From assembly GCA_044345405.1 (NCBI GenBank), contig JBIJBE010000003.1:8427-72426 (forward strand): DNA of 64,000 bases, written 5' to 3'. Numbering within the stretch: the first letter of the stretch is position 1; every line of letters starts with the position of its first letter. This document shows positions 7,396 through 44,434 of the stretch, one piece after another. The position numbers were made by a program, and so were the translations under genes. The stretch comes from Bdellovibrionota bacterium (GTDB lineage: Bacteria > Bdellovibrionota_C > UBA2361 > OMII01). The notes under the pieces are model-generated. The model saw only the letters and a program-made list of their open reading frames with translations, made no database searches and was not told where the DNA came from.

Positions 7396-7592
7396 TTGGA
7401 TCGCCTCCCTAGAGATGAATGGGCCTACGTGGCAACAACGCCACTATCCCCCCGAAGGTTGAGCGGATGTTTTGTTCTAACGCATAAGGTTTGGACGCTC
7501 ATTTGTAAGAGCCGGTGTGGGCGCGACGTCGTCCCGTGACACGGGGACTCAGGCACTTAAGGAACTGGTCCGTGTGAGACCGCGCGGGAATA

Positions 7593-8588: not shown

Positions 8589-8855
8589 GGGGTTATAGAA
8601 ACTAGCCTACGAGATGGGGGGCGGGAAGTAAAGGGCCGGGTCCTGTGCGAATCTGTTCGGCTTAGGCGGTGGGGCTCTTTTCTCTTTGCTCCTCCACCAG
8701 TTGTGGCACTCTGCGTCGGTCATTTTAGCCGCCGTTTTTGTTCAAAAAGTAGTTCGTCCCACGCAACTTTTCCCCTCAAGGAGCGATGAGAGGCCTGACA
8801 GTGAAACTCCGACGCGTGAGGTCGGTGATTCATCAGGCAGGGAGATTGAACGCAT

Positions 8856-9615
8856 GTACGAGGAGCAGGTCGAGCCCCCTTTCCATCGAGGGGCTCGTGG
8901 AGAGAGCATGGGAGCCGTTCTCAATCATCATTTCGAGCGTGACGCGCTCATTGAGGAGTACCATGAATTCGTCGAAGGATTGGTGTGTCGCCTCATGAGA
9001 GCGATGGGTCTTCCCCAACGACATCGTGATGACTTCGTTTCCGCCGGGCTCCTTGGGTTAGTCGAGGCCGCCGGTCGTTTCGATCCGGGGCGGGGAAGTG
9101 AGTTTCGCTCCTTCGTGTTTTTACGGATACGAGGCGCCGTTATCGATCATATTCGGGCCTCGTGTGAGCTATCGGGTCACGCGTATCAGGTTCTTAAGGC
9201 CTTGGAGAGCGCGCAGGAGATTCGAGCGCAGGCGTTGGAGGCGCGACGATCGGGAGGTCATCCGCCCAGAACGCAAGCGATGGAGGGGGTAGATGTCCTC
9301 AGTAAGAGCGCGGTCGCGTTGGCGCTCGTCACTCAGTCGGTCGACGCTCCTTTTTTTGGTGGAACCGCTCCCTCGGATCCGGAGCGAGAACTTCATAAGA
9401 AACAAACCTCAGAAAAAATTCGCGCCGCGATAGCAACTTTGCCCGAAAAGGAGCGAATCATCATCGAGCAGTACTACTTCCACGACCTCACGCTGAGCGA
9501 GGTCGCTCAGCAGTACGCGGGACTTTCAAAATCCTGGGTGTCGAGGTTGCATGACAGAGCGTTGGGGATGTTACGGGAAAAGTTGGTTGAGGGAGGGATT
9601 GGGGTTAAAGCCTAA
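8856..9615 (+). CDS. fliA: FliA/WhiG-type sigma-28 RNA polymerase sigma factor. The ORF is open from 8686, but the ATG at 8856 with an upstream GGGAG gives the family-typical ~252 aa.
   Basis: Region 2 (DDFVSAGLLGLVEAAGRFDPGRGSEFRSFVFLRIRGAVIDHIR) closely resembles FliA. The region 4.2 HTH is LSEVAQQYAGLSKSWVSRLHDRALGMLREKL. Confidence 0.8.
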
Positions 9616-9631
9616 CTCTTGTTCGGCCGCC

Positions 9632-18323: not shown

Positions 18324-19043
18324 CTACGCTACCCACGGAAGGAACGACCAGAAGCTCGGCTCATCAGCTGGGTCGTGCATAATATCACGAGCGATACACC
18401 TTCCAGCCTCATTTACCATCGCCTCGGTGTAGAGCATGTCGGATCGTTGCGAGGTCAGTCCAAACGTTCCGCTCACCTCGAACATGTCGTGTCTGTTCGT
18501 GACAACTCGTGAGGTTCCGTACCAGAGGGTCGTTCCTGAATCGGCATCGATAATTTTGGTGTGAATAGTCCACTCATCGAGGCGAGAGAGTCGCTCGAGA
18601 TATCCTACGAGGACGAGATCGTATCCCGCGGTGCGGGCGAGTGAGAGCGCCCCGAAGTTGCCGGTAAAGAAGTCATCCTTCTTGCCAGGCCAGTCTTGAC
18701 GATTGAATACCTCAATTATCGGAAGGGTATCGTATGCGAGCAGCTCTCGTTGGGTTGTCCATCCGAGTTGATCGCTAATTCCCGGAAGCTCAGAGTTCTG
18801 AGCGGTAAAGTTTGCCTGCGTCACGAAGGGGATAACCGCCATGCGCGCGGTGACACCACCCTTAAACCGCTGATCTATGAAGGCGGGAATGTCTGTCCGA
18901 ACATAGGCACGGGTTGTGCAAGTCTCGCCCGTGTGGCGAAAGAGCATCGCGCAGCTGGATAAAATTACCGGGAGTGTCAAAAGACTGACACGGAGAGCAC
19001 CCCGGATCCAGGTTGAAGTTTTTAAGGATGAAGCTAATTGCAT
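18324..19043 (-). CDS. Lipoprotein of the CsgG/FlgO/LpoB-like superfamily. The start is chosen at the Met that gives the signal peptide MQLASS...LPVILSSC.
   Basis: Lipobox LSSC and a GYDLVLVGYLE motif resembling CsgG/FlgO-family cores. The six-frame ORF runs on to 19280, but that extension overlaps the neighbouring gene. Confidence 0.45.
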   Translation of the reverse strand: MQLASSLKTSTWIRGALRVSLLTLPVILSSCAMLFRHTGETCTTRAYVRTDIPAFIDQRFKGGVTARMAVIPFVTQANFTAQNSELPGISDQLGWTTQRELLAYDTLPIIEVFNRQDWPGKKDDFFTGNFGALSLARTAGYDLVLVGYLERLSRLDEWTIHTKIIDADSGTTLWYGTSRVVTNRHDMFEVSGTFGLTSQRSDMLYTEAMVNEAGRCIARDIMHDPADEPSFWSFLPWVA

Positions 19044-19052
19044 GAGGTTACT

Positions 19053-19937
19053 ATGTTTACTCCAGTAGGTCTGAAAACCGGACATACACTTCTCTCGAGA
19101 GTTCAAAGAGTATGCCAGGTTCTGGGCGTTTGCACCGGTATTTTGCTTCTGGGTGCCGCTGGATGTAGCCCTCGCTACGATGACATGCCGGCGTATTGGC
19201 CGATTCCGAATAAAGATTACGACAACTACGGCCCTGGGCGTTTCAAGACCTCCCTCCTCGCGGCTCAGATTGATCGCCACTACCGAGGCTCGGCACCCGG
19301 TCCGATCGGTGTGACAACCTTCGTGAACGTTGATGATCTGTACTCCTCAAGCACTTTTGGACGCATGGTTGGAGAGCAGCTCATGAGTGAACTCGCGATG
19401 AAGGGATTCGATGTTATTGAGCTCCGTCACACCGATGCGCTGCAGTTCCTTGATCGTGGTGGAGAGTTCGCGCTTTCTCGTGACGCGGGTATGGTTCGAC
19501 CGGAGCGAAATCTCGCTGGTGTGGTTGTCGGCACCTACGTGGCTTCGCCAGAGCGGGTGTACGTCAACGCGCGCCTCATCGATCCCTCTACCTCAGTCGT
19601 GCTCTCAGCCGGTTCCGTTGAGATGAGCAAGACTCCCGAGCTGACGAAGCTTCTTCGTGGAGGAAGTCTCCCAGGATCGCTGGAGCGTATCCCCGTTCGA
19701 CACCTCGGAAATGTAACGCAGCAGATCGATCCAACCGAGACCTCTCGACGACGATGGAGTCAGGAGGAGGGAGGATGGGATATTCCTCAGACAGCTCCTG
19801 TGCCAAGCAGCCCTTCAGCGGCGCTTCCGTCAGCCCCTGTTTCGCCCAAGAGTTCGGCGAGCGCTCCTAAGGTTCTGAGCCAGCCCGAGGTTAGTGTGAA
19901 GGACGATGGAGTGGGTCCGGTCGTGAAGGTTCAATAG
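19053..19937 (+). CDS. FlgO/LPP20-like outer-membrane lipoprotein with a Pro/Ser-rich C-terminal tail
   Basis: Lipobox LLLGAAGC. The FlgO-like core is GVTTFVNVDDL...GFDVIE...LAGVVVGTYVASPERVYVNARLID. Confidence 0.45.
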   Translation: MFTPVGLKTGHTLLSRVQRVCQVLGVCTGILLLGAAGCSPRYDDMPAYWPIPNKDYDNYGPGRFKTSLLAAQIDRHYRGSAPGPIGVTTFVNVDDLYSSSTFGRMVGEQLMSELAMKGFDVIELRHTDALQFLDRGGEFALSRDAGMVRPERNLAGVVVGTYVASPERVYVNARLIDPSTSVVLSAGSVEMSKTPELTKLLRGGSLPGSLERIPVRHLGNVTQQIDPTETSRRRWSQEEGGWDIPQTAPVPSSPSAALPSAPVSPKSSASAPKVLSQPEVSVKDDGVGPVVKVQ

Positions 19938-20368: not shown

Positions 20369-21112
20369 GTGCGGCAAACACACAGAGAATCTTTTAACTC
20401 TTTAAGGGGTTACGTATTCATGAGCGCTGTTGAGACAACCAGCCATTTTTGGGTAGCCGCGCCTCCTCTCTACTCAAGCACCCTTCTCGTTGCGCCCGGA
20501 GCTGATAGCTCCGGCCAGGGGCGAGCAACGACGCGACTTGAGATCTTTGATACGGATGGAACTCAGGTTAATTCGGTCGAGGTCGAGTTTCCGAGTTCTG
20601 AGGTAGGCTTTGTTGAGCTTGAGCCCTTCACCGCCGCTCTTAAGATGCAAGGAGGGGTCGCTCACGGCCATCTTAAGGTCACCTCATCTGAAGGGACCCG
20701 ACATCTCTTCCGACAGTCGATCGGCTCGAGCGTTGTGCTCTATCAAGATCCCGTGCCTGTCGCGTCACGCGAGAACAGCTTCATTCCTGTTGTTATTGGC
20801 GGTCGACGAGAGCACATGGTGGTACTCGTCAACGGCGGAGCAGAGGAGGGGCAGATCGCGTGTCGCCTTTTTTACGGCAACCGCTCTCCTGAGTGGACCT
20901 TAACCGTTCCCGGTAACGGAAGTCGCGTTCTTTCCCTTGAGAATGAGCTCATAGCGTCTGCTGACCAAAAAGCGTGGGAGAAGGGAGCTCTTCAAGCGTA
21001 CGTTCGATTGTCAGGGAAGCTCCAGTCGCCGATAGCGGGACACATTATCGAACGGACCCTCGGGGAGTCTCCTGAGCAGGACCTGTATCGTTGTTTACTT
21101 TCTTGGGGATAG
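20369..21112 (+). CDS. Hypothetical protein (P1 of a three-gene operon). The start may be the ATG at 20420.
   Basis: A long ORF with GC3-rich codon usage like its neighbours. Its stop and the next start are 8 bp apart. Confidence 0.4.
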   Translation: MRQTHRESFNSLRGYVFMSAVETTSHFWVAAPPLYSSTLLVAPGADSSGQGRATTRLEIFDTDGTQVNSVEVEFPSSEVGFVELEPFTAALKMQGGVAHGHLKVTSSEGTRHLFRQSIGSSVVLYQDPVPVASRENSFIPVVIGGRREHMVVLVNGGAEEGQIACRLFYGNRSPEWTLTVPGNGSRVLSLENELIASADQKAWEKGALQAYVRLSGKLQSPIAGHIIERTLGESPEQDLYRCLLSWG

Positions 21113-21119
21113 AGGCAGT

Positions 21120-21902
21120 ATGGATCGCGCGGCTCCCGCAGCAGTAAAAACCGTGATGTTTTGTCTCTCAACATCATCGATTAAAACCCGTGTACATTTC
21201 TTTCCGACCGCGGGCTCCACGGCCAGTCATCATCCAATAACGTGCGTTCTCTCGCTCTTCGGTAAGGGGATTGAGAAGCGAGCGGTGATGCTCGACGGTG
21301 GAAGGCTCAATCAGCCCGATGGCGTTCGCCTTGAGGAGGCGTTCCCGACCCTTCGAAATGAAGCCTCGGGTATCTTCGGGTTGGAGATCCAACTCTCGTC
21401 TCAGCAGGGGCGAGTGAACCTTCTTTCGTCTCAAGCCGCGATCGAGCTCGTCTCGCCCCAGGCTTCGATCATGTACTATAGCGCGCCATTCGTTCCCGAT
21501 GTGGAAGAGGTTGCGTCGCCAGAGCCGCAAGGAGATCTCTCCCAGCGCCTAGCTGACGCGCGACGGCGCAGTTTTGTTGGTGTTGGCCTACAGGACGCGT
21601 TCGTAACGACCTCGCTCGTTATGGTTAATTCGACGAACGAAACGGTGCGACCAGCCATCTTCCAAGGAGTGGGAGAGGAGGCTCAATCCCTTCCGGTTGG
21701 AAATATCTCGCCTGAATCGGCGATGGAGATTCCCCTTGAAGAATCGCTCTTCAAGAAGACAACGCCGCATGAATGTCTCTGGGGACTCTCTCGGGCTGAG
21801 AAGATCTCGGTTGGGCCGGATTCTCTCACTCCTCATACCGCTTTCTATGTCATGTATCGTGACCCAGTAAGTAAGCGTCCTGTTTCGGTGTGTGCGTTAT
21901 GA
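21120..21902 (+). CDS. Hypothetical protein (P2). Weak internal similarity to P1 (LEI... beta-rich segments).
   Basis: ORF with operon context. No recognisable motifs. Confidence 0.4.
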   Translation: MDRAAPAAVKTVMFCLSTSSIKTRVHFFPTAGSTASHHPITCVLSLFGKGIEKRAVMLDGGRLNQPDGVRLEEAFPTLRNEASGIFGLEIQLSSQQGRVNLLSSQAAIELVSPQASIMYYSAPFVPDVEEVASPEPQGDLSQRLADARRRSFVGVGLQDAFVTTSLVMVNSTNETVRPAIFQGVGEEAQSLPVGNISPESAMEIPLEESLFKKTTPHECLWGLSRAEKISVGPDSLTPHTAFYVMYRDPVSKRPVSVCAL

Positions 21903-22681
21903 AGTTAGCCATTTTTTCTCCGTACGGTTCCTTCCATCGCGAGAGTGGTCTTATGTACCTCGTCGCGAACTACCTCGATAAGCAGGGTGGTGATGTCGCC
22001 CAGCTTCGGTGCGATGGTGCGCTCCCCGCGTGTGGACGGGATAAGAAGCATCAGAGTGGGCGGACTCCGTTCTCTTGCTTGCAGTGCATGAGCGAACAGA
22101 AGGCGCTCGCTCAGTGGGCGAACATTAAGAGTCGAGACCTCTCGTCGTACATCGTCCCTGATGACGTGCTCAAGAGCGCTCAGTGGATCTCCTCAATCGG
22201 AAAAGCTGATCTCTATCGAATTGAGTTTCGAGGCGTTCGGTTATGGGATGTGTGCGAGAAGGAGTTTCAGTCGCGGTGGACCATCGAGTCGCTTGAGAAG
22301 ATATCACCAGCGCAGGAGCGAGACCTCCGAGCGCTCTACGTTTCGTATGTCCACACCGTTGTGAGCAGCGAGCGCTTTATCGCGTCGTGGAAGCCGACCT
22401 TGCATTTCGTTGTTGGCTCGAACGATCCGCTCGCGCAGGCTTACCTTTCGCAGGTTCGACGCTCGGAGGGCGAAGCTGCCCTCTTCTCGTATGACGCTAC
22501 CAATGAATCGATCTCCGTTGAAGCGCTCAAGAACGGCGAAAAATATACGACGACCTTGATTATCCCCGAAGCAACCGAGATGCGCGCGGATCCCCGCACC
22601 TGGGCTCCAGAGCTCACCGCGATCGTGAACGAGATGCTCTCGTTCCTCGGGCATGGGGCGGATCTGGTGCCGACGAAGTAG
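21890..22681 (+). CDS. Hypothetical protein (P3) with an N-terminal Cys cluster (C-x12-CxxC) that may be a zinc ribbon
   Basis: The ORF overlaps the P2 stop by 13 bp. It is followed by a strong terminator hairpin. Confidence 0.4.
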   Translation: MCVMKLAIFSPYGSFHRESGLMYLVANYLDKQGGDVAQLRCDGALPACGRDKKHQSGRTPFSCLQCMSEQKALAQWANIKSRDLSSYIVPDDVLKSAQWISSIGKADLYRIEFRGVRLWDVCEKEFQSRWTIESLEKISPAQERDLRALYVSYVHTVVSSERFIASWKPTLHFVVGSNDPLAQAYLSQVRRSEGEAALFSYDATNESISVEALKNGEKYTTTLIIPEATEMRADPRTWAPELTAIVNEMLSFLGHGADLVPTK

Positions 22682-22940: not shown

Positions 22941-24251
22941 TCACTGCCCCACCGGCTCCGGCGCCTTTCTTAGCTCAATCGTAAACGAGGTCCCCTGATC
23001 CTGCGCGCTCTCAACCTTGATACTCCCGCCCAGCTTTTCCACAAGCTTCTTCACCGAGGCGAGCCCAACACCGGTACCCTCGATCGTCTCCTCACCGGCG
23101 CGATTGAACGGCTTGAAGATCGAGTCGATCTTATCTGAGCTAATACCTCGTCCGTTATCGGACACCACGATCGAGGTTTTTCGCCGCGAGAGCGCTTTTT
23201 CGGATCCGATCGAGATGAGGAGGGGGCGATCGCTTTTCTTGTATTTGATAGCGTTGCCGATCAGGTTGCTGAAGACCTGATAGAGTTGCGTTTTGTTGCC
23301 GAGGACAACGGGAAGCTCTTGAATGGTCGTGATCTTCGCGTCGCTCTGTTGGATCTGCAGTTGATGATCTTCAAGTACCTCTCGAATAACATCGTGAAGA
23401 GGGATCGGCTCAAGGGACCGCTCTGCAGCCGAGATACGCGCGAGTTCCAGTACCCCCGAGACCAGATCTTGCAAACGCCTCGTCGCCTTTCTGATGTAGG
23501 TAAGGGGTTCCGCGAGCTGCGGATTGTTTTTTATAGCGTCCTCCTCCTCAAGGATTCCGAGCATCCCGGAGACGGTGAGGATCGGGGCTTTCAGATCGTG
23601 GGAGAGCATATAGGTAAACTCGTTTAGATCTTTATTGCGCTCCTCAACCTGTAGCTGATTCATAACGTGCGCCGTGACATCGATAGTGATCGAGAGCGCG
23701 ACGTACTCGTTCGAGGTGTTGTCGAGGATGGGCACGGTTCGGGTCTCTAGCCACAGCGTGATGCCTGATTTGTGGTAGAAGCGGTAACGGCACTGAAAAG
23801 GCTCGCCGGTCGCGACGATGTGGAGCGATCGTTGAACGATCTCTCGGTCCTCATCTTGAACGTTCGCGGTGAGGAAGGTGCTCTTGTTACGATAGATCTC
23901 CGAGAGGGGGAATCCGGTGAGGACCTCAGTGAAGGGGCTACACCACAGCACCGTTCCGTCGGCCTCATGAAGCATCACCGCCGCGGCTACGTTTTCGGTG
24001 AGGATCTTGTACCTGGTGCGATGATCCGTGTCGGATTGTCTTAGTTGCGCGACGAGGTGTTCCAGTTCACCCGCTCTCTTTCCGATCACGGGAATCCATC
24101 GGAGAGGGCCAGAGAAACGGACGCGAGGGGTCTCCTCATCCGCTGACGTGACGATACGAGAGAGGTGAGTAAGCGTCGCGATATACAACGCGGCGAGAGC
24201 GCATAGGAGTAACGCTAGTATCGCCGCGACGTAAATCACCCATTGCTCCAT
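22941..24251 (-). CDS. Membrane-anchored PAS-domain sensor histidine kinase (HisKA + HATPase_c)
   Basis: N-terminal TM helix, a PAS segment, the H-box LSHDLKAPIL and the G-box GTGVGLASVKKLVEKLGG. Confidence 0.8.
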   Translation of the reverse strand: MEQWVIYVAAILALLLCALAALYIATLTHLSRIVTSADEETPRVRFSGPLRWIPVIGKRAGELEHLVAQLRQSDTDHRTRYKILTENVAAAVMLHEADGTVLWCSPFTEVLTGFPLSEIYRNKSTFLTANVQDEDREIVQRSLHIVATGEPFQCRYRFYHKSGITLWLETRTVPILDNTSNEYVALSITIDVTAHVMNQLQVEERNKDLNEFTYMLSHDLKAPILTVSGMLGILEEEDAIKNNPQLAEPLTYIRKATRRLQDLVSGVLELARISAAERSLEPIPLHDVIREVLEDHQLQIQQSDAKITTIQELPVVLGNKTQLYQVFSNLIGNAIKYKKSDRPLLISIGSEKALSRRKTSIVVSDNGRGISSDKIDSIFKPFNRAGEETIEGTGVGLASVKKLVEKLGGSIKVESAQDQGTSFTIELRKAPEPVGQ

Positions 24252-25162
24252 GATTCGTAGAGGGAGCGCTCCTGCTCGAACGCGGATGCCGCTCTGTCGA
24301 GAAGTTCCGCTTGTAAGGGCTCCGCGACCTCAAGGTGGTTCCACGCGTCAGGAAGCATCGGCTCGTAAATCCGTCGCGCTTGATTGGCCTCCCGTCCAGC
24401 GCCGAGCGCGAGGGTATGCGCGATGATGTTAGCGGCTTTGACGAGGGCAACGACGGAGTCTTTCGGAATCTCCTGCCAACTCTTGTGATGTTTACTGATC
24501 ACCGCGGTGAGTTCGGGGGTGAAGTGCCATCGCTCCGCGATGAGGTGACCAACTTGGGTGTGATCGAACGGGTACGCGACCGTTTCGCCATCGATCGATT
24601 GGAGTCCCTCTTCATATCCCTTCGTGACAACCTTTTCATAATTAGTTGTGTGTTGTTGCAACATGAAGAGCTTTCCGATGTCGTGCATCAGCCCTCCAAG
24701 GAAAGCCATATCCGCCTGGGCAGGACGGAGCGTGTTGGCGAGTGTGCGTGCGGTGATCGCGACCGCGATATCGTGCGCCCAGAAGAGGGCCCGTAGAGGA
24801 TGACGAGTGGGGAAGAAGTTAGAGAGCGCGGTGGCGTTCATGAGGCACTGCAGCTCGGATATGCCGATAACGGTGACCGCGTCCGTAATAGTTTTACTGT
24901 CGGAGCCCCGGCTGTAGTAGACCGAGTTCGCTATCTTGAGTACGCGAGCAGAGAGGCCCTCGTCGTGCTCCACGACCGCGATGTAATCTTCGGGCTCAGC
25001 GTTTGGTGAGGTCGCCAATTGAAAGGCCTGCTGAGCGACCTTCGGCATAATTGGCAGTGATTTGATCCCGAGGTAGCTGACGATAGATTGCCGCACCCCG
25101 TCCGCAAGGGTAGGGTGTCCCTCGTTCTGCTTTGATTTGCGCCCGAACAATTTTGATAGCAT
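24236..25162 (-). CDS. HDOD-domain signalling protein
   Basis: HDOD signature (LPIMPKVAQQAF...LKIANSVYY...GLMHDIGKL). It overlaps the downstream kinase start by 16 bp, so the two are in one operon. Confidence 0.75.
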   Translation of the reverse strand: MLSKLFGRKSKQNEGHPTLADGVRQSIVSYLGIKSLPIMPKVAQQAFQLATSPNAEPEDYIAVVEHDEGLSARVLKIANSVYYSRGSDSKTITDAVTVIGISELQCLMNATALSNFFPTRHPLRALFWAHDIAVAITARTLANTLRPAQADMAFLGGLMHDIGKLFMLQQHTTNYEKVVTKGYEEGLQSIDGETVAYPFDHTQVGHLIAERWHFTPELTAVISKHHKSWQEIPKDSVVALVKAANIIAHTLALGAGREANQARRIYEPMLPDAWNHLEVAEPLQAELLDRAASAFEQERSLYESWSNG

Positions 25163-25404
25163 AACCCTCTAATAAGATGACGCTTTCCTTGCGGTCGGTG
25201 CCCGTTTCGATCGTACGCCGGGTTTCCCTCCGCGGTGGCTTACTGATACCGTGGGGTATCGGCACTCCCTCCTCCCTGATGAACGATTCGGCGCTGAGGG
25301 GATGGCGATGGAGCGGTAAGGCTAAGTGCCCTGGTTTTTTCAAGAATTTGCGTTAGAACCGGGGCACGGGTAGTATAGACCGATTAAGAAAGGGCCATTC
25401 GATT

Positions 25405-26769
25405 ATGCATACCCTCGCGAACCCTCACAGCTTTCAGGACGCAACCACCGCAAATCAACTCGTGTTAGTTGTTGATGATGAGGCGAGTATCCGCCGTTCC
25501 CTTGAGGGAGTCTTGAAGGACGAGGGTTTCTCGGTCGTTCTCGCAGAGGATGGGGAGTCGGCCATTCGCATTCTCATGAATACACGACCAGCCCTCGTGC
25601 TTCTCGACATCTGGATGCCGGGGATGGATGGTCTCGAGACCTTACGAAAGATCAAAGAGATCCATCAGGATCTTCCCGTTGTGATGATCAGCGGTCACGC
25701 CACGATCTCAACGGCCGTTGCCGCGACACGACTCGGGGCGATGGACTTCCTTGAGAAGCCACTCGATCTCTCTGGGACTATTCAACTCGTTCGTCGCGTT
25801 CTCAACCAAGCTGAAACGCCAGACTCTGACAATGAGCCCCGATGGGAGGCTATAGAGCCGGCATCTGTTGGACCCCTTCGTGAGTCCGTAACGATCAACC
25901 CTGTGGTCTTCACGAAGCAGACCCTGCGTGGTCGAGCGATGCCTCAAAAAACCCTCGCGCACGCCGCGATCTTGTACGGTCAGGGACTTCACTCCGGTCG
26001 TAAGAGCGGACTTATCCTTGAGCCACTTCCGCCGAACTCTGGTATCCACTTTGTTGGCGTTTCAGAGACCACCGTTGTTCCAGCGCACGTCGACTTCGTT
26101 GAGTCCACCGGATTCGCGACCACCGTTCGCCTGGGTCAGACCCAAGCGGGCACGATTGAACACCTTATGTCCGCGCTCTGCGCCTACGGCATCTCGAACG
26201 TTCTCATCAAGTGTAACGGTGAGGTTCCCGTAATGGACGGCTCGGCGCGTGAGTTCTGCCGCCTCTTTGAAGAGGTAGGTTTGAGCGAGCAGGACGGCGA
26301 GTGGTACGAGATCGATATCAAGAAGGTTATCGAGGTAGGGGATGGGAAAGAGTCCATCCGTATCGAGCCAGCTGATGAGTTCAGCGTCGATTACACCCTT
26401 CGCTATCCTGAGCCGGTTGGCGAGCAGCAGTTCTCATTCACCTTAACTGACTCCGCTTCCTACCGAGATCAGATCTCAGCCGCGAGAACCTTTAGTTTCG
26501 TGAAGGATGTAGGACACCTCCAACGTCAAGGGCTCGCGCTCGGTGGTCGTTTCGATAACTTCCTTCTGATCGGTACCGAAGGCGCTATTAACGATGAGTG
26601 GCGCTATCCAAATGAGCCGGTGCGTCACAAGGTCTTGGACGCTATCGGTGACCTCTTCCTTCTTGGACGGCGTTTGCGTGGAAAGGTCACGGCTCGAATG
26701 ACCGGTCACTCTGACAATATCGCGATCCTTAAGAAGGTTCGTGATGAGTTGATGCGAGCGGGGAGCTAG
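25405..26769 (+). CDS. lpxC: Fusion of a response-regulator receiver (REC) domain to UDP-3-O-acyl-N-acetylglucosamine deacetylase (LpxC)
   Basis: N-terminal REC (LVVDDEASIRRS, the phospho-Asp in LLDIWMPGMDG, the MISGHAT segment). The LpxC part shows GQGLHSGRKS, VPVMDGSAREF and the conserved HKVLDAIGDL zinc-site motif. 454 aa, against ~300 for stand-alone LpxC. Confidence 0.8.
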   Translation: MHTLANPHSFQDATTANQLVLVVDDEASIRRSLEGVLKDEGFSVVLAEDGESAIRILMNTRPALVLLDIWMPGMDGLETLRKIKEIHQDLPVVMISGHATISTAVAATRLGAMDFLEKPLDLSGTIQLVRRVLNQAETPDSDNEPRWEAIEPASVGPLRESVTINPVVFTKQTLRGRAMPQKTLAHAAILYGQGLHSGRKSGLILEPLPPNSGIHFVGVSETTVVPAHVDFVESTGFATTVRLGQTQAGTIEHLMSALCAYGISNVLIKCNGEVPVMDGSAREFCRLFEEVGLSEQDGEWYEIDIKKVIEVGDGKESIRIEPADEFSVDYTLRYPEPVGEQQFSFTLTDSASYRDQISAARTFSFVKDVGHLQRQGLALGGRFDNFLLIGTEGAINDEWRYPNEPVRHKVLDAIGDLFLLGRRLRGKVTARMTGHSDNIAILKKVRDELMRAGS

Positions 26770-26849
26770 TCTCGTCTGTCGATAGCAAGAGAAAAGGCCA
26801 CCACTACTCCTCGTAGTGGTGGCCTTCGTCATTTTTCAGGGATGTCGAC

Positions 26850-27191
26850 CTAGCAGAAGTTGCTGGTCTCTTCGTCGGTAAGTCCGTCCTCGTTGGTCGA
26901 GATAGCGGTAAGGATCGCCTTAGCGTCATCTCTAATCATCGCGGAGAGGCTGTTAATCAAGGTTACGTGACGAGTAACCTCATCCCAGTTTTTGGAAGCG
27001 ATCGCCTCACACAGCGCTACCGCGAGTGTGCGTTGCTTCGACAAGATGGTGTCGTATGACTCGAGGCGCCGTACAACTCCCTCAGGAACAGAGTCTCGAG
27101 TCTTGAAGGTCTGTCGAGCCTTCGTGATCGCGCCCTCAAGCTCAGTGAATGAAGCGAAGAGTTTTTCGATAATCTTTGGTTCCATGGTCAT
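26850..27191 (-). CDS. Hypothetical small helical protein (113 aa)
   Basis: An ORF with an appropriate start. No recognisable motif. Confidence 0.35.
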   Translation of the reverse strand: MTMEPKIIEKLFASFTELEGAITKARQTFKTRDSVPEGVVRRLESYDTILSKQRTLAVALCEAIASKNWDEVTRHVTLINSLSAMIRDDAKAILTAISTNEDGLTDEETSNFC

Positions 27192-27698: not shown

Positions 27699-28886
27699 AT
27701 GACCATCCCGCCGAGTGACCAAACCCCCGTTGCTGAGCCAGCTCCGGCTGCGGCGTGGGAGCGGTGCGAGGTGATCGATGATGGGGACCGCTTTTTTACA
27801 GCGCTTGAGGCCGCAATCGATGCGGCAACCGTGAGCGTTGATGTCGAGTTTTACATCTTCTCCACGGACCAGACGGGGCAACGGTTCTTTGAGGTTCTCA
27901 CTCGCGCGGCTCGGAGGGGTGTGGTGGTTCGTCTTCTGATTGATGGTATCGGCTCAACCGGCTTCGCTCGTAGTTACCGGGAGCGCGCGAAGGCAGCTGG
28001 AATTCTCGTTCGAGTGTTTCACGAACCTCCGTGGGAGCGGTGGCGGTGGTGGCAGCGGCGTCGAGGAGGGGTGGAGAGGAGGTCGACCTGGCGCCGAGTA
28101 TTTCGTCGCCTTAATCATCGCAATCATCGAAAGCTCTGTATTATCGATGGCCGGACCGCGTTCGTTGGAAGTTTTAATGTGACGCGGTATCACCTCGCCT
28201 CTGAGATGGGTACGGCGGCGTGGCGAGATACCGGTGTCATCGTTGAGGGATCAGAGATCTCACTACTTCGTAATACCTTCGAGGATATCTGGATCGGAAA
28301 GTTCCAACGCCTGAAGCGCAAGATCCGACGAAAACGATTGAAGACCAGCCCGCTCGTTAGATTAAATGTGACCGGAAAGCAACGGCGGGAGAACTACCTC
28401 GATCTCTTGGTGAGACTTCTTCGCGCGCGACAGCGAATTTGGATAACGAACGCTTACTTCGTTCCGGATGGTTCATTACTTCGGGTGCTCTCAGTGGTGG
28501 CTCGAGAGGGGATAGATGTGCGAATACTCGTGCCCGGTTTCTCTGACGTCGTGTTTATTCCTTGGATAACCTCAGCTTTCCATTTCGGTCTCCTCTCCGC
28601 TGGGGTTAAAATATTCGAATACCGCGGCTCGGTGCTGCACGCGAAGACGATGGTGATCGATGAGTGGGGGCTGATAGGCTCAAGCAACCTCAATCATAGA
28701 AGTCTGTTGCACGACCTTGAGGCGGATATCGTGGTAACGGATAAGGGTTCGCTCAAGAGTTTGAGCGATCAGTTCGTGACGGATCTCGGTCGCTCCGTCG
28801 AAGTGACCCTTGATAATTGGCGTCAACGTCCGTTTATTGAGAGGTTGCTCGGTCGGGTTCTTCTCTGGTTTAGGTATGTTCTGTAA
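27699..28886 (+). CDS. Phospholipase D / cardiolipin-synthase-family protein with two HKD motifs and a Trp/Arg-rich insertion
   Basis: HKD motifs NHRKLCIIDGRTAFVGSFN and HAKTMVIDEWGLIGSSNLNHRS. The unusual insert is PPWERWRWWQRRRGGVERRSTWRRVFRR. Confidence 0.75.
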   Translation: MTIPPSDQTPVAEPAPAAAWERCEVIDDGDRFFTALEAAIDAATVSVDVEFYIFSTDQTGQRFFEVLTRAARRGVVVRLLIDGIGSTGFARSYRERAKAAGILVRVFHEPPWERWRWWQRRRGGVERRSTWRRVFRRLNHRNHRKLCIIDGRTAFVGSFNVTRYHLASEMGTAAWRDTGVIVEGSEISLLRNTFEDIWIGKFQRLKRKIRRKRLKTSPLVRLNVTGKQRRENYLDLLVRLLRARQRIWITNAYFVPDGSLLRVLSVVAREGIDVRILVPGFSDVVFIPWITSAFHFGLLSAGVKIFEYRGSVLHAKTMVIDEWGLIGSSNLNHRSLLHDLEADIVVTDKGSLKSLSDQFVTDLGRSVEVTLDNWRQRPFIERLLGRVLLWFRYVL

Positions 28887-28894
28887 CGACACGC

Positions 28895-29656
28895 ATGGTC
28901 GATACCAGGGTTCTCAAAATTCTCTCCTATAACATTCACAAAGGGCTCGGCCTTGGTAATCGCGCGTTTACGCTCCCACGGATTCGGGAATCCCTTCAAG
29001 CACTCCAGCCCGACATCGTCTTCTTGCAAGAGGTTCTCGGGCAACACGATAAGCACGCCAACCGTTTTCAGGGGTGGCCAACGCTCTCGCAGAGCGATTT
29101 CCTCGCTGAGGCAGGATGGCCCCACGCCGCGTACGGTAAAAACGCGGTCTACTCGCACGGACATCACGGCAACGCTATCTTGAGTAAGTATCCGATCGTT
29201 GAGTACGAGAATATCGATGTCTCAACGAACGCCTTTGAGTCCCGAGGGATCCTTCACGCGGTTATCAAAGTCCCGTGGAGTGAGGTTCCCGTTCACTGTA
29301 TCTGTGTCCACCTCAATATGCTTCGTCGTGGACGTGACGCGCAGCTCAAGCATCTCTGCCGACGGGTGATGCGGAGTGTTAGTGAAGCGGAGCCCCTAAT
29401 CGTCGCGGGCGATTTTAATGATTGGCAAGAGAGCGCCACAAAGCAGCTCTTCGATGATATCGGGGTGCATGAGGTATTTCACACCTTACGTGGAGCGCAC
29501 GCGCCGACCTTTCCGAGTAGGTTTCCCGTGCTACGGCTCGATCGGGTGTATGCCCGCGGGGTGAAGGCGCTTGGTGGCGAGATCCTAAACGGCCCCCCGT
29601 GGACCGATCTCTCAGATCACGCGCCGCTCTTGGCGCAGTTAGAGATAGAGATTTAG
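28895..29656 (+). CDS. Endonuclease/exonuclease/phosphatase (EEP) family protein
   Basis: EEP motifs (ILSYNIHKG, FLQEV, the GDFND box, the C-terminal SDHAP motif). It lies 9 bp after the PLD gene. Confidence 0.7.
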   Translation: MVDTRVLKILSYNIHKGLGLGNRAFTLPRIRESLQALQPDIVFLQEVLGQHDKHANRFQGWPTLSQSDFLAEAGWPHAAYGKNAVYSHGHHGNAILSKYPIVEYENIDVSTNAFESRGILHAVIKVPWSEVPVHCICVHLNMLRRGRDAQLKHLCRRVMRSVSEAEPLIVAGDFNDWQESATKQLFDDIGVHEVFHTLRGAHAPTFPSRFPVLRLDRVYARGVKALGGEILNGPPWTDLSDHAPLLAQLEIEI

Positions 29657-39445: not shown

Positions 39446-40645
39446 ATGATCAACCCACGAGTAGCTTCCATGCGGACCTACACCGCGGCGCGTAAAACGC
39501 AGCTATTCGCGGCGCTTGGACGCCCGGTTGTCGCTGACCTCACGATCGGTGAGCCGCAACATGAGCCGGATCCGAAGGTCGTTGAGATCCTAAACGCCTA
39601 CGCGGCGGAGTCTGTTAGTCGTTATCCAAAGACTAAGCAGGAGTCGTATCTGACCGAGGCGATCATCGCCGCCAACGTTCATTCGAAAAAGTTATGTGGC
39701 TCCATCGGCGAGGAGCAGGTTTTGGCGGGTCTCGGAAGTGGAGAGCTCCTGTATTCTCTCGCGACCGCGTCGCTCGACCCGGCGAAGCCGTACGTTTTAA
39801 TTCCCAATCCGTCGTATCAAGTTTATGCCTCCGCGACGGAGCTAGCGGGTGGCATTCCGTACTACTTCAATCTTACTAAGGAGAACAGCTTTCAACCTGA
39901 CCTTGCTCGGATCCCTCGTGATATCCTTGAACGAACGAGCCTATGTTACCTCAATAGCCCGAACAATCCGTGCGCGGTTTCGTACTCTGAGGAGAGTCTA
40001 CGAGAGATCGTTCTTCTTGCGCGGCAGTATCGGTTCGCTGTCGCTTCTGATGAGTGCTACAGCGAGATCTATTTCGACCGAAAGCCGGTGAGTATGCTTG
40101 AGGTATGCGCGAAGCTCGATGGTGACAATTCTTTCAAGAATGTGGTTGCGTTTGATACGCTCTCGAAGCGCAGCAGTCTCCCTGGGCTTCGTTCCGGATC
40201 GATGGTTGGCGACGCGGCTATCGTTTCGAACTATCTCAAGATCCGTTTGAGTGAGCGTAAGGTGCTGCCGAACAACGTGCAACGAGCCTCCGCATATGCG
40301 TGGATGAACTACGAGGATGTCGCGAGGAGTAGAGAGCTCTACCGACAAAAGTTCGAGATCGTTCGCGACGCGTTTCAGGCGATCGGACGCCCGATCACCT
40401 TGCCGGATGGAACGTTCTATTGTTGGCTCGATATATCGGAGCTTAACCCGAGCGACGAGACCTTCGCGTTGGAGCTCGCCAAAGAAACCGGAATTCTGAC
40501 CTTTCCCGGTAGCTATTTCTCGGTCGTTAACGAGGGTGTGAACCCAGGGGCGGGGTTCATTCGTATCGCGCTTATCGATACCGTCGAGGCTACAAGGAAA
40601 ACAGTTCAAACTTTAACCCAGTATATTACAAACTATAGGTGTTAA
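39446..40645 (+). CDS. dapC: Class I/II aminotransferase, probably N-succinyl-L,L-diaminopimelate aminotransferase (DapC-like)
   Basis: PLP aminotransferase fold motifs (NSPNNPCAV, FDTLSKRSSLPGLRSG) and its position directly upstream of dapD-dapE. Confidence 0.65.
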   Translation: MINPRVASMRTYTAARKTQLFAALGRPVVADLTIGEPQHEPDPKVVEILNAYAAESVSRYPKTKQESYLTEAIIAANVHSKKLCGSIGEEQVLAGLGSGELLYSLATASLDPAKPYVLIPNPSYQVYASATELAGGIPYYFNLTKENSFQPDLARIPRDILERTSLCYLNSPNNPCAVSYSEESLREIVLLARQYRFAVASDECYSEIYFDRKPVSMLEVCAKLDGDNSFKNVVAFDTLSKRSSLPGLRSGSMVGDAAIVSNYLKIRLSERKVLPNNVQRASAYAWMNYEDVARSRELYRQKFEIVRDAFQAIGRPITLPDGTFYCWLDISELNPSDETFALELAKETGILTFPGSYFSVVNEGVNPGAGFIRIALIDTVEATRKTVQTLTQYITNYRC

Positions 40646-41832
40646 CGATGTCAGCTGACGCGGCGCGTGGCCATTTTGCGGAGAACCTTCAACGACTCAC
40701 GGATCCTTGCCCTGAAGTGGGGGTAGTTAAAGTGTTCCTTGATGGAAAGCTCATTCGCGTTGTGGCGAACATTCCAGGGCAATCGGGATCCCTTCGGGTG
40801 TTTAACCACTTTCAAAAAAATGGAGAGCTCTCTCAGGCAGCGGTAGCTGGATGCCTTGAGGTATTCGCGCCACTCGTGCAAGAGGCGAAGGCTTCGCCCG
40901 GGTCTCATCCGAATATCGACCTTCTTCTTGGCCTTCGTTCGGATCAGGTCCTGACTATCACCACGGTGCGAACCTCCCCTGATCTCTTCGCGAAGCTCGC
41001 GGATGGAACCGCGAGTCAACGTGAGAAGCAGGGGGCCGTTGAGCTTCTCGATAAGGGGATCGTCCGATGCGCGGAAAAGTTGAGCAACTACACCATCGGC
41101 GCAAACGGAGTCGAGCTAACGGGTAACGGCACATGGGTGACACAGAGCTACGGCGTCGCGTGCATGAATGCCGGGTTCTCCGCGTTTCCGATGGTAAAGA
41201 TGGGTGAGCATTTCTACGACAAGGTTCCCCTTAAGACCGAAGGATGGAGCTCCGAGGATTTTGAGAACGCAGGTGTGCGCTTTATTCCTGGGTGCTTCGC
41301 TCGACGTGGTGCGTACATCGGAGCTGGAACGACGATTATGCCTGGCGGCATAGTGAACATCGGCGCGTACGTCGAGGGAAGTGGTGTTATGATCGACGGT
41401 GGCGCTCGTGTCGCGACCGGCGCTCAGGTAGGTAAAGGTGTTAAGCTTGGAGCTGGTTCCGGTATCGAGGGAATCCTTGAGCCCGCGGGACGGCTTCCGT
41501 CTATCATTGAGGACAACGTTCGAATCGGAGCGAACTGCGAGGTATGCGGTATCGTTGAAGAGGGCGCTGTCGTCGCGAGTGGCGTTGTGATGGCTTCCGG
41601 CAAAAAGATATTTGACCTTCGAACCAACGCTGAGGTTGAGCCACGCTACATGGCGATCGGCGAGAAGTTCTATGAGATACCGGTTATTCCGCGAAATAGG
41701 GTAGCGGTGTCCGGTGTCTATTCGAAGACTGAACAGCTTGGGATCGACTGTATCGTTCTCTTGGACAAGGACGCCTCCGATACCTCTCTCGCTCAGATGC
41801 CAAAGAACGCTTCGCTCTATGTGAAGCTCTAA
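40639..41832 (+). CDS. dapD: 2,3,4,5-tetrahydropyridine-2,6-dicarboxylate N-succinyltransferase (long form with N-terminal extension)
   Basis: Hexapeptide-repeat left-handed beta-helix core that aligns closely with DapD (FYDKVPLK...GAYIGAGTTIMPGGIVNIGAYVEGSGVMIDGGARVATGAQVGKGVKLGAGSGIEGILEP...IIEDNVRIGANCEV). Confidence 0.8.
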   Translation: MLTMSADAARGHFAENLQRLTDPCPEVGVVKVFLDGKLIRVVANIPGQSGSLRVFNHFQKNGELSQAAVAGCLEVFAPLVQEAKASPGSHPNIDLLLGLRSDQVLTITTVRTSPDLFAKLADGTASQREKQGAVELLDKGIVRCAEKLSNYTIGANGVELTGNGTWVTQSYGVACMNAGFSAFPMVKMGEHFYDKVPLKTEGWSSEDFENAGVRFIPGCFARRGAYIGAGTTIMPGGIVNIGAYVEGSGVMIDGGARVATGAQVGKGVKLGAGSGIEGILEPAGRLPSIIEDNVRIGANCEVCGIVEEGAVVASGVVMASGKKIFDLRTNAEVEPRYMAIGEKFYEIPVIPRNRVAVSGVYSKTEQLGIDCIVLLDKDASDTSLAQMPKNASLYVKL

Positions 41833-41847
41833 CAGCGAGGATACGTC

Positions 41848-42987
41848 ATGACGATCGGTAGCTCAGTCGAACTTACTCGGATGCTGCTTCAGGAGAATAC
41901 CTGCACCGGCTCGTTCGACTCTCACGTTTCGACACGACTCGCTGGATGGCTAGAGTCGTTGGGATTCGGTGTGGAGTCCGTTGAGGTCGATGGAATCGTT
42001 CATCTCTGTGGCTCGATTGGCCCCAAAGACGCTGCTACGCGACTCGCGTTTGTCGGGCACTACGATACGGTAGGGGCAGGAGAGGGATGGCGTTATCCAC
42101 CATTTGGAGCCGCGGAGGAAAACGGAATTCTCTACGGCAGGGGCGCGAGTGACATGAAGAGTGGGGACGCCGCGATGATATTCGCGGCCGTAAAGCTCGC
42201 TACTGTTGGAGCTCGCTCGACCGTTTTCTTGCCAGGCGATGAGGAGACGGCTTCTCGGGGGATGCCGGCGTTGCTTGAGAAGGTCGGTGGTACGTTTGAC
42301 TACTGCATCTGCGGCGAGCCAACCTCAAAGAAGAAGCTAGGAGACTGCGTTAAGGTAGGGCGCCGTGGCATGTTGGGCGCCGAGGTATCGCTCAAGGGGC
42401 GACGGGGACACACAGCGTACGCGGATATCACGCCCAACGTGGCGCATTCTCTGCCAGCGGTAATAACGGAGCTTACGAAGCCGTGGCACGACGCCTGCTA
42501 CGGTGTCGCGACAACCCTCTCTATTACAACTATCTCCACCGATAGCACCGCGCTGAACGTTATTCCGGGTGTTGTGTCGTTTAAGTTTGATATGCGATTC
42601 GCGCCGAATCGCACAATCGATGAGATGCAGGGTGAGATCATCGCGCGCCTCGACGCCGCTGGGGTCGCCTATGAGATTGAGTGGCAAAAGGCTACTCGCC
42701 CGTATGTGACGGGTGTGGATGCTGATCCTTCCTCTCCTCAAGGTAAACTCATTGCCGTTACCACATCGGTCATTGAGGAGACCTTGGGCGTTCGCCCCAT
42801 ACTCACCTGCGATGGCGGCACCAGCGACGCTCGATTCGTCGCCTGGCACGGTGTTCCAACGATTGAGTTCGGTGTTCCGCATGGCAACATGCATGGAGCC
42901 GACGAGTTTGTAGAGGTAAGGAACATTGAGCTGCTTGAGCGGGTGTTTGTGGAGATTGGGGAGCGGTTGGTGAGGAACGCTGTCTAA
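41848..42987 (+). CDS. dapE: Succinyl-diaminopimelate desuccinylase (M20 metallopeptidase family)
   Basis: M20 motifs HYDTVGAGEGWRYPPF, GRGASDMKSG and GDEE. Confidence 0.75.
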   Translation: MTIGSSVELTRMLLQENTCTGSFDSHVSTRLAGWLESLGFGVESVEVDGIVHLCGSIGPKDAATRLAFVGHYDTVGAGEGWRYPPFGAAEENGILYGRGASDMKSGDAAMIFAAVKLATVGARSTVFLPGDEETASRGMPALLEKVGGTFDYCICGEPTSKKKLGDCVKVGRRGMLGAEVSLKGRRGHTAYADITPNVAHSLPAVITELTKPWHDACYGVATTLSITTISTDSTALNVIPGVVSFKFDMRFAPNRTIDEMQGEIIARLDAAGVAYEIEWQKATRPYVTGVDADPSSPQGKLIAVTTSVIEETLGVRPILTCDGGTSDARFVAWHGVPTIEFGVPHGNMHGADEFVEVRNIELLERVFVEIGERLVRNAV

Positions 42988-43126: not shown

Positions 43127-43276
43127 AGGTGCGCACCTCAAAAGTCATTAACGGGACGCGCATTACCTCCTCGCCCCGACACTCTCCCCATATCCACGCT
43201 CCTCCAAAAAGTGCTATAAATTCCGCCAGTAACCCGTTGATACGCCGTGCCCTCAGTGGCGCGGTTGGAGGTATGT

Positions 43277-44404
43277 ATGCGCGTTCTTGTTCGTCCCTTG
43301 TTCGTAGGATTTGTCGCTCTTGCGAGTGTTCTCGGAGCGAGCGGTTGTGGCTCAAAAGAGAAAGCCCCCGAAGCTCCGCAATTAGAGATCTCCGTCGTTG
43401 ATATCGGACGCAAAGATGTTGTCCTCTCCTCTGAGTTCGTGGGGCGAACCAATGGAGCTATCGACGCTGAAGTTCGCGCGAGAGTTGAGGGAGTTCTTGA
43501 GGAGATACACTTTCAAGACGGCGGAGAGGTAACGGAGGGGCAACTCCTCTACTCGATCGATGACGCTCCGCTCATCACGACGGTTGCTCAAGCGAGAGGC
43601 TCCCTCGCGGAGGCGCTCACCCGTCAGACTCAAGCCGATGTTGATCTTAAACGAATTCGACCGCTCGCGGAGATAAACGCGGTGAGCAAGCGAGAATTAG
43701 ATGGTGCTATCGGTCGTAAAGGAGTCGCGGATGGCGCGGTAGACGCCGCTAACGCTCAAGTCGCTGCGGCCGAAATTCAGTTGGGGTACGCTAAGATCAA
43801 AGCGCCAACATCGGGTGTTATCGGGATTAGCAAGTTCAAGATCGGAGAGTTGGTCGGCAAAGGCCCCAACACCTCGGTGCTTAACACCGTATCAAAGATC
43901 GATCCGATCCATGTGAAGTTTCCCGTAAGTGAGAGTGAGTACCTCTATTTTTCAAAGCTCGCTGAGCAACAGGGCCCGAATCGGGAGAAGCGAGTTTTGC
44001 AACTCATCCTCGCCGACGGATCCGTTCATCCAGAGCTGGGCGAGCTTGTTTCCCTTGATAGAAATATCGACGCGCAGACAGGCGCAATCACCGCAGAAGC
44101 CTCGTTTCCTAACCCCACGAAACGAATTCGTCCGGGAATGTTCGCCAAGATTAAGACCGTCGCGGAAACCCGCAACGACGTCCTGGTCGTACCAAAGCGA
44201 GCGCTCAAGGAGATTCAAGGGAAGTATCAGGTGTTCGTCGTCGCGGCTGATGGAACGGTTGACGTTCGTAACGTTGAGGTTGGGGCGGACGCGGGAGACT
44301 CTCGCGTTGTTGAATCGGGTCTTAGTGAACATGAACTCGTGGCGGTGGATGGTATCCAACGTCTTCGTAGTGGCATGACCGTAAAGGCTAAGACCGTCAG
44401 TTAA
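43277..44404 (+). CDS. RND efflux periplasmic adaptor (membrane-fusion protein, AcrA/MexA family). The ATG at 43277 has a GGAGG RBS.
   Basis: Lipoprotein signal (LGASGCGSKE), then HlyD/biotin-lipoyl-like and beta-barrel segments. Confidence 0.8.
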   Translation: MRVLVRPLFVGFVALASVLGASGCGSKEKAPEAPQLEISVVDIGRKDVVLSSEFVGRTNGAIDAEVRARVEGVLEEIHFQDGGEVTEGQLLYSIDDAPLITTVAQARGSLAEALTRQTQADVDLKRIRPLAEINAVSKRELDGAIGRKGVADGAVDAANAQVAAAEIQLGYAKIKAPTSGVIGISKFKIGELVGKGPNTSVLNTVSKIDPIHVKFPVSESEYLYFSKLAEQQGPNREKRVLQLILADGSVHPELGELVSLDRNIDAQTGAITAEASFPNPTKRIRPGMFAKIKTVAETRNDVLVVPKRALKEIQGKYQVFVVAADGTVDVRNVEVGADAGDSRVVESGLSEHELVAVDGIQRLRSGMTVKAKTVS

Positions 44405-44434
44405 TCGCCTCGCGCGCGAGCTTCGGAGGAAAAG

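Follow-up and report, generated by a model that had tools for sequence, protein, structure and literature searches.

A response-regulator receiver domain fused to the lipid A enzyme LpxC in a Bdellovibrionota bacterium and in other lineages: architecture, conservation and possible phospho-control

Described control of LpxC and comparable regulators

The deacetylase LpxC is a flux-controlling and usually essential enzyme of lipopolysaccharide synthesis, and a major antibiotic target. Here, we describe a gene of a Bdellovibrionota bacterium (GenBank assembly GCA_044345405.1, contig JBIJBE010000003.1, positions 8,427 to 72,426 of the forward strand) that encodes an N-terminal response-regulator receiver (REC) domain and a C-terminal LpxC domain in one protein. 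This stretch of 64,000 nucleotides is referred to as the window, and positions are those of the window unless another locus is named. The fusion had been noticed in an earlier note made from the sequence alone, and was followed up here by profile searches, comparison of orthologous loci, structure prediction and a literature search.

A 2025 review of lipid A regulation describes, as controls of LpxC, the proteolysis by FtsH/LapB/YejM, the activation by MurA in Pseudomonas and Ght in Neisseria, furthermore a possible turnover by Lon in alphaproteobacteria, where NtrYX and ChvGI also act on lpxC transcription; the regulation of LpxC outside a few model proteobacteria is acknowledged as an open question (PMC12444477). 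The words receiver, fusion and fused are absent from this review (PMC12444477). The amount of lpxC transcript is under the control of NtrYX in both Rhodobacter and Caulobacter (PMC7240162, PMC12444477), and in Rhodobacter sphaeroides the lpxC mRNA was up about nine-fold on loss of NtrYX (PMC7240162). The DNA-binding regulator DVU2934 of Desulfovibrio vulgaris targets lpxC and no other gene (PMC3333781). A two-component link to lpxC is already known at the level of transcription, and the new element is the physical fusion. A description of the REC-LpxC architecture was not found in the literature, including the 2025 review in the Journal of Biological Chemistry on lipid A regulation; tables of response-regulator censuses may mention it.

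The fusion is not a categorically new system; it belongs with the response regulators that have an enzyme as output, and represents a candidate new mode of LpxC control, which is apparently uncharacterised. The arrangement of an N-terminal receiver, a flexible linker and a C-terminal enzyme is the same as in CheB, PleD/WspR (REC-GGDEF) and RpfG (REC-HD-GYP). CheB-type regulators and the fusion also share the Asp/Asp/Asp/Ser/Lys phospho-site, for which the expected logic is that phosphorylation switches the enzyme; they differ in the output, since that of the fusion is the LpxC zinc amidase, which was not found described in the literature as output of a response regulator. Canonical LpxC (E. 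coli, with FtsH/LapB/YejM; P. aeruginosa, with MurA) is the same enzyme with the same fold, active site and need to limit flux, whereas the fusion has an N-terminal receiver and no long FtsH-degron tail, and its input would be phosphorylation. The other recognised multi-domain LpxC is LpxC-FabZ (PRK13188, NF009667), whose partner is a C-terminal metabolic enzyme; against the NF009667 LpxC/FabZ model the window protein scored 195 bits (cut-off 465), and the LpxC half alone matched. 'LpxC-FabA' fusions are also reported for the Omnitrophota-PVC-FCB cluster (bioRxiv 10.1101/2025.10.16.682753).

Two further systems resemble the fusion on its regulatory side. DVU2934 is a response regulator of a 'deltaproteobacterium' that is dedicated to lpxC (PMC3333781), but as a separate protein that binds the lpxC promoter, whereas the receiver of the fusion is part of the enzyme. 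NtrX is the best match of the fusion's receiver, and the long forms of the fusion family (see below) contain, like NtrX itself, an AAA+ domain without GAFTGA plus a Fis-type helix-turn-helix (HTH) domain; in contrast to NtrX, the window protein is without an AAA+ or DNA-binding domain and therefore cannot be a transcription factor, and its link to LpxC is covalent rather than transcriptional. The kinase encoded next to the fusion in the window is a PAS kinase of 436 amino acids (aa), not of the NtrY type.

The fusion gene, its domains and their conservation

The fusion protein of 454 aa is encoded by a single uninterrupted open reading frame (ORF) at 25405..26769 (+), with an ATG start and no internal stops. 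The REC domain was proposed to be complete, and all of its motifs are indeed present, i.e. D24-D25-E26, D68 in LLDIWMPGMDG, S96, and K118; Response_reg of Pfam was matched at residues 20-126 (E 5.4e-31; 107.5 bits, cut-off 30.2). The proposal of a full LpxC core with the HKVLDAIGDL motif was confirmed as well. PF03331 was matched at residues 181-445 (E 4.7e-79; 266 bits, cut-off 27) and over profile positions 1-266 of 268, i.e. at full length, and the lpxC equivalog TIGR00325 of NCBIfam at 221.4 bits (cut-off 187.25). The LpxC motifs comprise HKVLDAIGDL at residues 408-417, E252-H253 (TIEHL), T362-F363 in RTFSF, and H435 in MTGHS; Glu252/His253 are the equivalent of E78/H79 in E. coli by an alignment made partly by eye. 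Both domains were hence found in the 454-aa protein when checked by profiles, as the earlier note had suggested. The linker, expected there at about 40 aa, is present, and is about 43-53 aa when measured. No PDB entry with both a REC and an LpxC domain was found.

The REC-LpxC fusion is genuine and robust. Independent JGI and Logan samples, from lake metagenomes and SRA assemblies, yielded 22 contigs on which gene calling gave exactly this 454-aa protein as a single gene, and more than 110 clusters with 76-100% identity to the fusion protein have both Pfam domains. For the comparison of orthologues, the best 79 loci from GTDB species representatives were used (labelled L001 onward), and in 77 of these 79 loci the match extended over both domains, with identities as low as 42%. 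The chance that REC and lpxC are really two separate genes is negligible, since the fusion is kept in 77 species-level genomes and in thousands of database clusters, and the linker is in frame and evolves like coding sequence. A frameshift, a mis-assembly or a read-through is ruled out by the continuous ORF, the 22 identical contigs and the 77 species-level genomes; the frameshift or assembly chimera that the earlier note had named as fatal to its observation was not encountered, neither in the one ORF, nor on the 22 contigs, nor in the 77 of 79 loci. A separate LpxC produced from an internal start was also considered and rejected. No conserved internal start that gives free LpxC was found: Met179, at the domain boundary, is present in only 15 of the 77 orthologues, and is not preceded by a Shine-Dalgarno sequence.

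No substitution was found at the REC residues D24, D25, D68, S96 and K118 in 75/75 fused orthologues, nor at the LpxC residues E252, H253, T362, H408, K409, D412, D416 and H435 in 77/77 orthologues, on account of which both halves look functional. These LpxC residues comprise the His-His-Asp zinc site (H253, H408, D412), the Glu/His acid-base pair (E252, H435) and the substrate residues Thr, Lys and Asp (T362, K409, D416). The dN/dS values, taken where dS was unsaturated, are 0.014-0.117 for REC and 0.03-0.055 for LpxC, and 0.125-0.24 for the linker; in distant orthologues, the identity is 54% for REC, 49% for LpxC and 6% for the linker. REC and LpxC are both under strong purifying selection. 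The length of the linker differs by tens of residues among lineages, and a motif within it (NPVVFxxQxLRG) is semi-conserved in Bdellovibrionota-like clades only; by the model described below, the linker is a free-evolving tether that is predicted to be disordered.

A model of the fusion protein was obtained with AlphaFold2 from an alignment of 76 sequences (predicted local distance difference test, pLDDT, 74.7; predicted template modelling score, pTM, 0.62). In this model, residues 19-135 form five strands alternating with five helices, i.e. a (beta-alpha)5 fold, with pLDDT ~90; linker residues 137-171 have pLDDT <50, and the region of Insert II of the LpxC domain (364-399) is of low confidence. 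In a Foldseek comparison, the LpxC domain gave TM-scores (target-normalised) of 0.78-0.86 with LpxC of Pseudomonas, E. coli and Aquifex, which confirms the two-lobed LpxC fold.

A Shine-Dalgarno-like sequence, AAGAAAGGG, is located 9 nt upstream of the REC-lpxC ATG (by eye). Within 25163-25404, no promoter was found by a sigma-70 consensus scan, and no sigma-54 promoter by eye. A hairpin with a T run follows directly after the stop codon, and the REC-lpxC transcript therefore looks monocistronic, and convergent with the ORF at 26850..27191 (-). The latter ORF, of 113 aa and without a family match, shares the hairpin terminator (26794-26826), and adjoins REC-lpxC in 11 loci of the close clade at 68-95% identity. 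The features of the locus are collected in Table 1.

Table 1. Features of the REC-lpxC locus in the window, and long-form proteins of the family
Feature	Position	Strand	Remarks
REC-LpxC fusion gene	25405..26769	+	454 aa plus stop; Pfam Response_reg + LpxC, TIGR00325 above cut-off
REC domain, NtrX/NtrC-type	25462..25809	+	residues 20-135; Pfam, NCBIfam and PDB matches, AlphaFold2 fold
Asp68 codon, predicted phospho-acceptor	25606..25608	+	invariant in 75/75 fused orthologues
Inter-domain linker	25810..25938	+	residues 136-178; low pLDDT, variable length
LpxC deacetylase domain	25939..26745	+	residues 179-447; Pfam profile, Foldseek match
Glu252 + His253 codons (TIEHL; general base, first zinc ligand)	26158..26163	+	invariant in 77/77
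H408-K409-...-D412-...-D416 codons (HKVLDAIGD)	26626..26652	+	zinc ligands His/Asp, substrate Lys, Asp; invariant in 77/77
His435 codon, counterpart of E. coli His265	26707..26709	+	invariant in 77/77
Hairpin (14-bp stem) then T run	26794..26826	+	candidate bidirectional terminator, 25 nt past stop codon; terminator scan
Divergent intergenic region, HDOD gene to REC-lpxC	25163..25404		242 bp
HDOD protein, 308 aa, first gene of divergent operon	24236..25162	-	Pfam HDOD, E 2.4e-47
PAS-HisKA-HATPase histidine kinase, 436 aa, candidate phosphodonor	22941..24251	-	Pfam domains
ClsB-like cardiolipin synthase	27699..28886	+	Pfam PLDc_2 (two copies); NCBIfam cardiolipin synthase/ClsB below cut-off
EEP-family protein	28895..29656	+	Pfam Exo_endo_phos
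Long-form proteins	P0199, P0203-P0211, P0213, P0214, P0216, P0218, P0223		representative library

Spread of the family and its affinity to NtrX

The window belongs to a freshwater lineage, in which the species representatives go by the labels Bdellovibrionota, Pseudomonadota or 'delta proteobacterium'. Full-length fusions were found also in metagenome-assembled genomes labelled Oligoflexia, Syntrophaceae, Syntrophorhabdaceae, Thermodesulfobacteriota, Candidatus Deferrimicrobium, Polyangiaceae, Thermodesulfovibrionia, Acidobacteria/Aminicenantes, and Chrysiogenia. In a profile search, all of the best 120 matches had both Pfam domains, with near-flat scores of 703-711 bits. In total, 7641 of the 8000 candidates scored gave E <= 1e-20, which indicates that the REC-LpxC family comprises thousands of clusters at 90% identity; at 50% clustering, the short form (REC-LpxC) is represented by ~20 clusters. 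The architecture is abundant, with at least six differently labelled lineages, and is not rare. The earlier note would have given up its claim of novelty for an architecture both widespread and characterised; the family proved to be widespread (at least six lineages), but no characterisation was found in the literature. The source names of the members, wherever looked at, are plainly 'UDP-3-O-acyl-N-acetylglucosamine deacetylase', and thousands of database entries named only 'LpxC' hence conceal a signalling domain.

The best NCBIfam match of the fusion's REC domain is NtrX (126 bits), and its best matches in the PDB are the Brucella NtrX receiver entries 4d6x and 5m7n. The window protein contains neither the Sigma54_activat AAA+ domain nor the Fis-type HTH domain in Pfam searches; with its NtrX-like REC, it would thus be a derivative of the NtrX/NtrC family rather than a member. 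The NtrX-type origin and the long relatives of the architecture REC-AAA+-LpxC had not been recognised in the earlier note. Two of the 79 loci, L075 (751-2946; labelled Gemmatimonadota) and L077 (8627-10822), encode such a long form of 731 aa, REC-Sigma54_activat AAA+-AAA_lid-LpxC, and 15 further long-form clusters of 650-736 aa, REC-Sigma54_activat(AAA+)-AAA_lid-(HTH)-LpxC, were found in the representative library (Table 1). There are also intermediates: P0212 is REC-HTH_8-LpxC, and P0202 and P0217 have REC, then ~90 residues without a recognisable domain, then LpxC. Also counted with the intermediates are P0207 and P0213, whose AAA+ domains are degenerate. All 17 long forms are without the GAFTGA loop, and most have the Walker B glutamate replaced; three have lost Walker A, and six the HTH domain. 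By these motifs, the central module of the long forms is read as NtrX-like, non-sigma-54, and decaying. Given these long-form relatives with a decaying centre, the short REC-LpxC fusion probably derives by reduction from an NtrX-type regulator that was joined to LpxC.

The long and the short form have about the same diversity at 50% clustering. In a neighbour-joining (NJ) tree of the LpxC domain from BLOSUM62 distances, the fused forms cluster apart from the 45 nearest unfused LpxCs, and short and long forms interleave, except that the subclade of the window contains short forms only. In an NJ tree from Kimura distances, the exact split of fused and unfused forms is absent, being recovered in 59 of 100 bootstraps, and the window subclade in 78 of 100; a core-only split was recovered in 9 of 60. 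A single origin of all fusions is plausible on these trees, not established. The most economical scenario is that an NtrX-type regulator gene was fused to lpxC and that the AAA+/HTH core was lost later, possibly more than once. The series from REC-AAA+-HTH-LpxC to REC-LpxC would represent a 'Rosetta-stone' fusion that connects LpxC with NtrX-type signalling across phyla, and it fits the unexplained effects of NtrYX on lpxC and the envelope in alphaproteobacteria.

Possible phospho-control, partner kinases and gene neighbourhood

We lean, if only slightly, towards the reading that the product of the gene is a hybrid response regulator with, as its output, a predicted catalytically competent LpxC that is switched through phosphorylation of Asp68. 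A sensor kinase would phosphorylate Asp68; the likeliest one in the window is the membrane-anchored PAS kinase that is encoded divergently and would be made together with its HDOD partner. A change on the alpha4-beta5-alpha5 face of the receiver would then switch the LpxC activity, either by an intramolecular REC-LpxC contact that is made or broken (autoinhibition in the style of CheB) or by dimerisation. Phosphorylation may activate or inhibit LpxC. In consequence, the lipid A flux would be set post-translationally by the signal, which would replace the FtsH/LapB proteolysis of enterobacteria, and the reduced NtrX-type REC-AAA+-HTH regulator joined to LpxC would link NtrYX-type signalling physically to the enzyme. 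Direct control of catalysis in the manner of CheB, allosteric or steric, is favoured because the receiver stays covalently attached to an unaltered active site even in members in which AAA+, HTH and the neighbouring kinase were lost.

The fusion suggests a direct two-component control of outer-membrane synthesis, and offers the testable idea that a kinase signal sets the lipid A flux post-translationally, via Asp68. Phospho-control of LpxC appears as the most economical reading of the architecture, and in this respect the earlier proposal of phosphorelay control of the committed lipid A step is retained; a two-component control of lpxC as such is, however, not new, as it is known transcriptionally. 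More doubtful, yet worth stating, is the generalisation that in several phyla the cell's sole LpxC may carry an NtrX-derived receiver and that phosphorylation of Asp68 may toggle its catalysis, a mode outside the reviewed mechanisms. If true, this would provide a mechanistic reason why NtrYX-type systems tie to the cell envelope.

The C-terminus bears on another possible role of the receiver. The stretch beyond the catalytic GH motif is just 16-28 residues long in all 77 orthologues, compared with about 40 residues in E. coli LpxC. By its predicted tail, the fusion is not of the FtsH/LapB-controlled enterobacterial type, as the long C-terminal tail that bears the FtsH degron (a concept described in PMC12444477) is absent, and for control by proteolysis another handle would be needed. 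The REC domain might serve as such, as a phospho-dependent degron or as a docking site for a protease adaptor, and phosphorylation would then set the stability of the protein through kinase-gated proteolysis (the logic of RssB and CpdR). Enterobacteria control LpxC by regulated proteolysis, and Lon may do so in alphaproteobacteria (PMC12444477); RssB models are among the NCBIfam matches of the REC domain. However, this likeness to RssB is generic REC similarity, NtrX/NtrC models score higher, and no protease or adaptor gene is conserved beside the fusion; control of stability is therefore considered unlikely.

With respect to the phosphodonor, the earlier note had pointed to the divergent HDOD protein and PAS kinase. 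This layout was found exactly as described and is kept in 18 loci, but the pairing holds for the clade of the window only. The coding regions of the HDOD gene and the PAS kinase overlap by 16 nt, and the N-terminus of the kinase looks, by eye, like a single membrane anchor. The divergent HDOD-kinase pair is kept in 18/18 loci of the clade, with identities of at least 71% for the fusion, 58-88% for the kinase and 53-92% for HDOD, and is not conserved beside the fusion in distant lineages. The kinase at 22941..24251 is a fair candidate phosphodonor within the window's clade only. Other kinases adjoin the fusion elsewhere: in L054 (Thermodesulfovibrionia; short form), a kinase (2402-4606) overlaps the fusion (4603-5883) by 4 nt on the same strand, and in L077 (long form), a kinase (6381-8615) ends 11 nt upstream of the fusion, also on the same strand. 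Both belong to a 734-744-aa class that is AtoS/LIC_11548-like and unrelated to the 436-aa PAS kinase of the window, and they are likely the cognate kinases of the fusions in these two lineages. Partial kinases precede the fusion in L065 and L075. With contexts that differ, and mostly without a kinase, one partner kinase has been swapped for another in the course of evolution.

Several points weigh against a direct switching of LpxC by its receiver. Most family members are orphan response regulators without a neighbouring kinase; for example, only two of 128 neighbours in 26 further loci have HATPase_c. The AlphaFold2 model, with its pTM of 0.62 and linker pLDDT <50, yields no reliable packing of REC against LpxC. 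LpxC is monomeric in known structures, and we know of no precedent for a dimerisation switch of LpxC. Finally, the status as sole lpxC is based on the 64-kb window and on +/-10 kb around the 79 loci, in which a second copy was not found.

The last point leads to the question whether the fusion is an accessory, conditional LpxC paralogue that boosts or remodels lipid A while an unfused lpxC does the housekeeping, a possibility that is orthogonal to the mechanism of control. No lipid A gene cluster was found around the fusion in any lineage examined, none of the 128 neighbours being a lipid A enzyme, and in cultured relatives such as Desulfovibrio, lpxC is treated as an ordinary gene (PMC3333781); both would suit an accessory role. 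On the other hand, the equivalog cut-off of TIGR00325 is passed, the catalytic residues are invariant, neither the window nor the +/-10 kb around each of the 79 loci contains a second LpxC, and the fused LpxC domains cluster apart like an orthologous lineage, with moderate support. Moreover, the fusion is part of a housekeeping string in Oligoflexia-like genomes, nusA-infB-rbfA-truB-purA-[REC-lpxC]-mreB. An accessory paralogue has, in our estimate, about one chance in several.

The gene order in Oligoflexia-like genomes is, more completely, rimP-nusA-infB-rbfA-nrnA-truB-purA, then REC-lpxC, then mreB, while in Syntrophaceae-like genomes the fusion is flanked on one side by radical-SAM/aldehyde-dehydrogenase genes and on the other by a small HTH_17 protein. 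With such housekeeping or miscellaneous neighbours, the context is undecisive on a housekeeping role, save for the nusA...purA-[gene]-mreB string of one clade. The position beside mreB in this clade might also suggest that the receiver governs the localisation or the partners of LpxC (membrane, pole, envelope enzymes) without altering catalysis, for which there are parallels in Ght of Neisseria, proposed to localise LpxC, and in MurA of Pseudomonas, which activates LpxC by binding (PMC12444477); alternatively, the receiver could be a phosphate sink in a branched pathway. But no partner is conserved across the lineages, and a covalent attachment to an intact enzyme across phyla would be needless for a phosphate sink. 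Either role is quite improbable compared with a switch that acts on LpxC itself.

Genes for purine biosynthesis recur beside the fusion in unrelated lineages: purA is upstream in L013, L016, L017, L022, L030-L033, L055 and L076 (Oligoflexia-like), purM and purN are downstream of the long form at L077:11161-12833, and the 128 other neighbours include three AIRS and two SAICAR synthetase matches. This could reflect ancestral synteny or coincidence.

Downstream of the fusion in the window, the ClsB-like/EEP pair (27699-29656) presumably resembles E. coli clsB-ybhP. It is found near the fusion in 9-11 loci of the close clade, also where the block is inverted, and it fits a membrane-lipid theme while proving no functional link. 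On the other side, three consecutive ORFs at 20369-22681 (+), with 247, 260 and 263 aa, gave no match in Pfam or NCBIfam and are unrelated to each other as paralogues; the one at 21890-22681 has a Cys-rich motif and adjoins the kinase in 15 loci.

A protein with REC and HisKA, which the earlier note had placed in a type III secretion locus, was found at 14655..15377, but its surroundings look flagellar. This protein of 240 aa (14655-15377, +) has Response_reg and HisKA and no HATPase_c, and could be a phosphotransfer or phosphatase-type module. The flagellar-looking genes comprise a FliA/WhiG-like sigma factor (8686-9615), a FliN-like C-ring protein (10547-11413) and an FHIPEP/FlhA export protein (11840-13753), with the regions 8686-13753 and about 19038-19937 being of this kind; a gene of the FlgO family was called on equivalent contigs (L080, 3907-4533).

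Elsewhere in the window, a diaminopimelate-pathway-like cluster (39446-42987, +) comprises a class I/II aminotransferase, a DapD-like succinyltransferase with an N-terminal DUF2322, and an M20 peptidase read as DapE-like; after it comes an RND efflux operon (43247-49013). A 353-aa ORF at 6334-7395 (-) has a weak match to the collagen triple-helix repeat (E 1e-5, below the Pfam cut-off).

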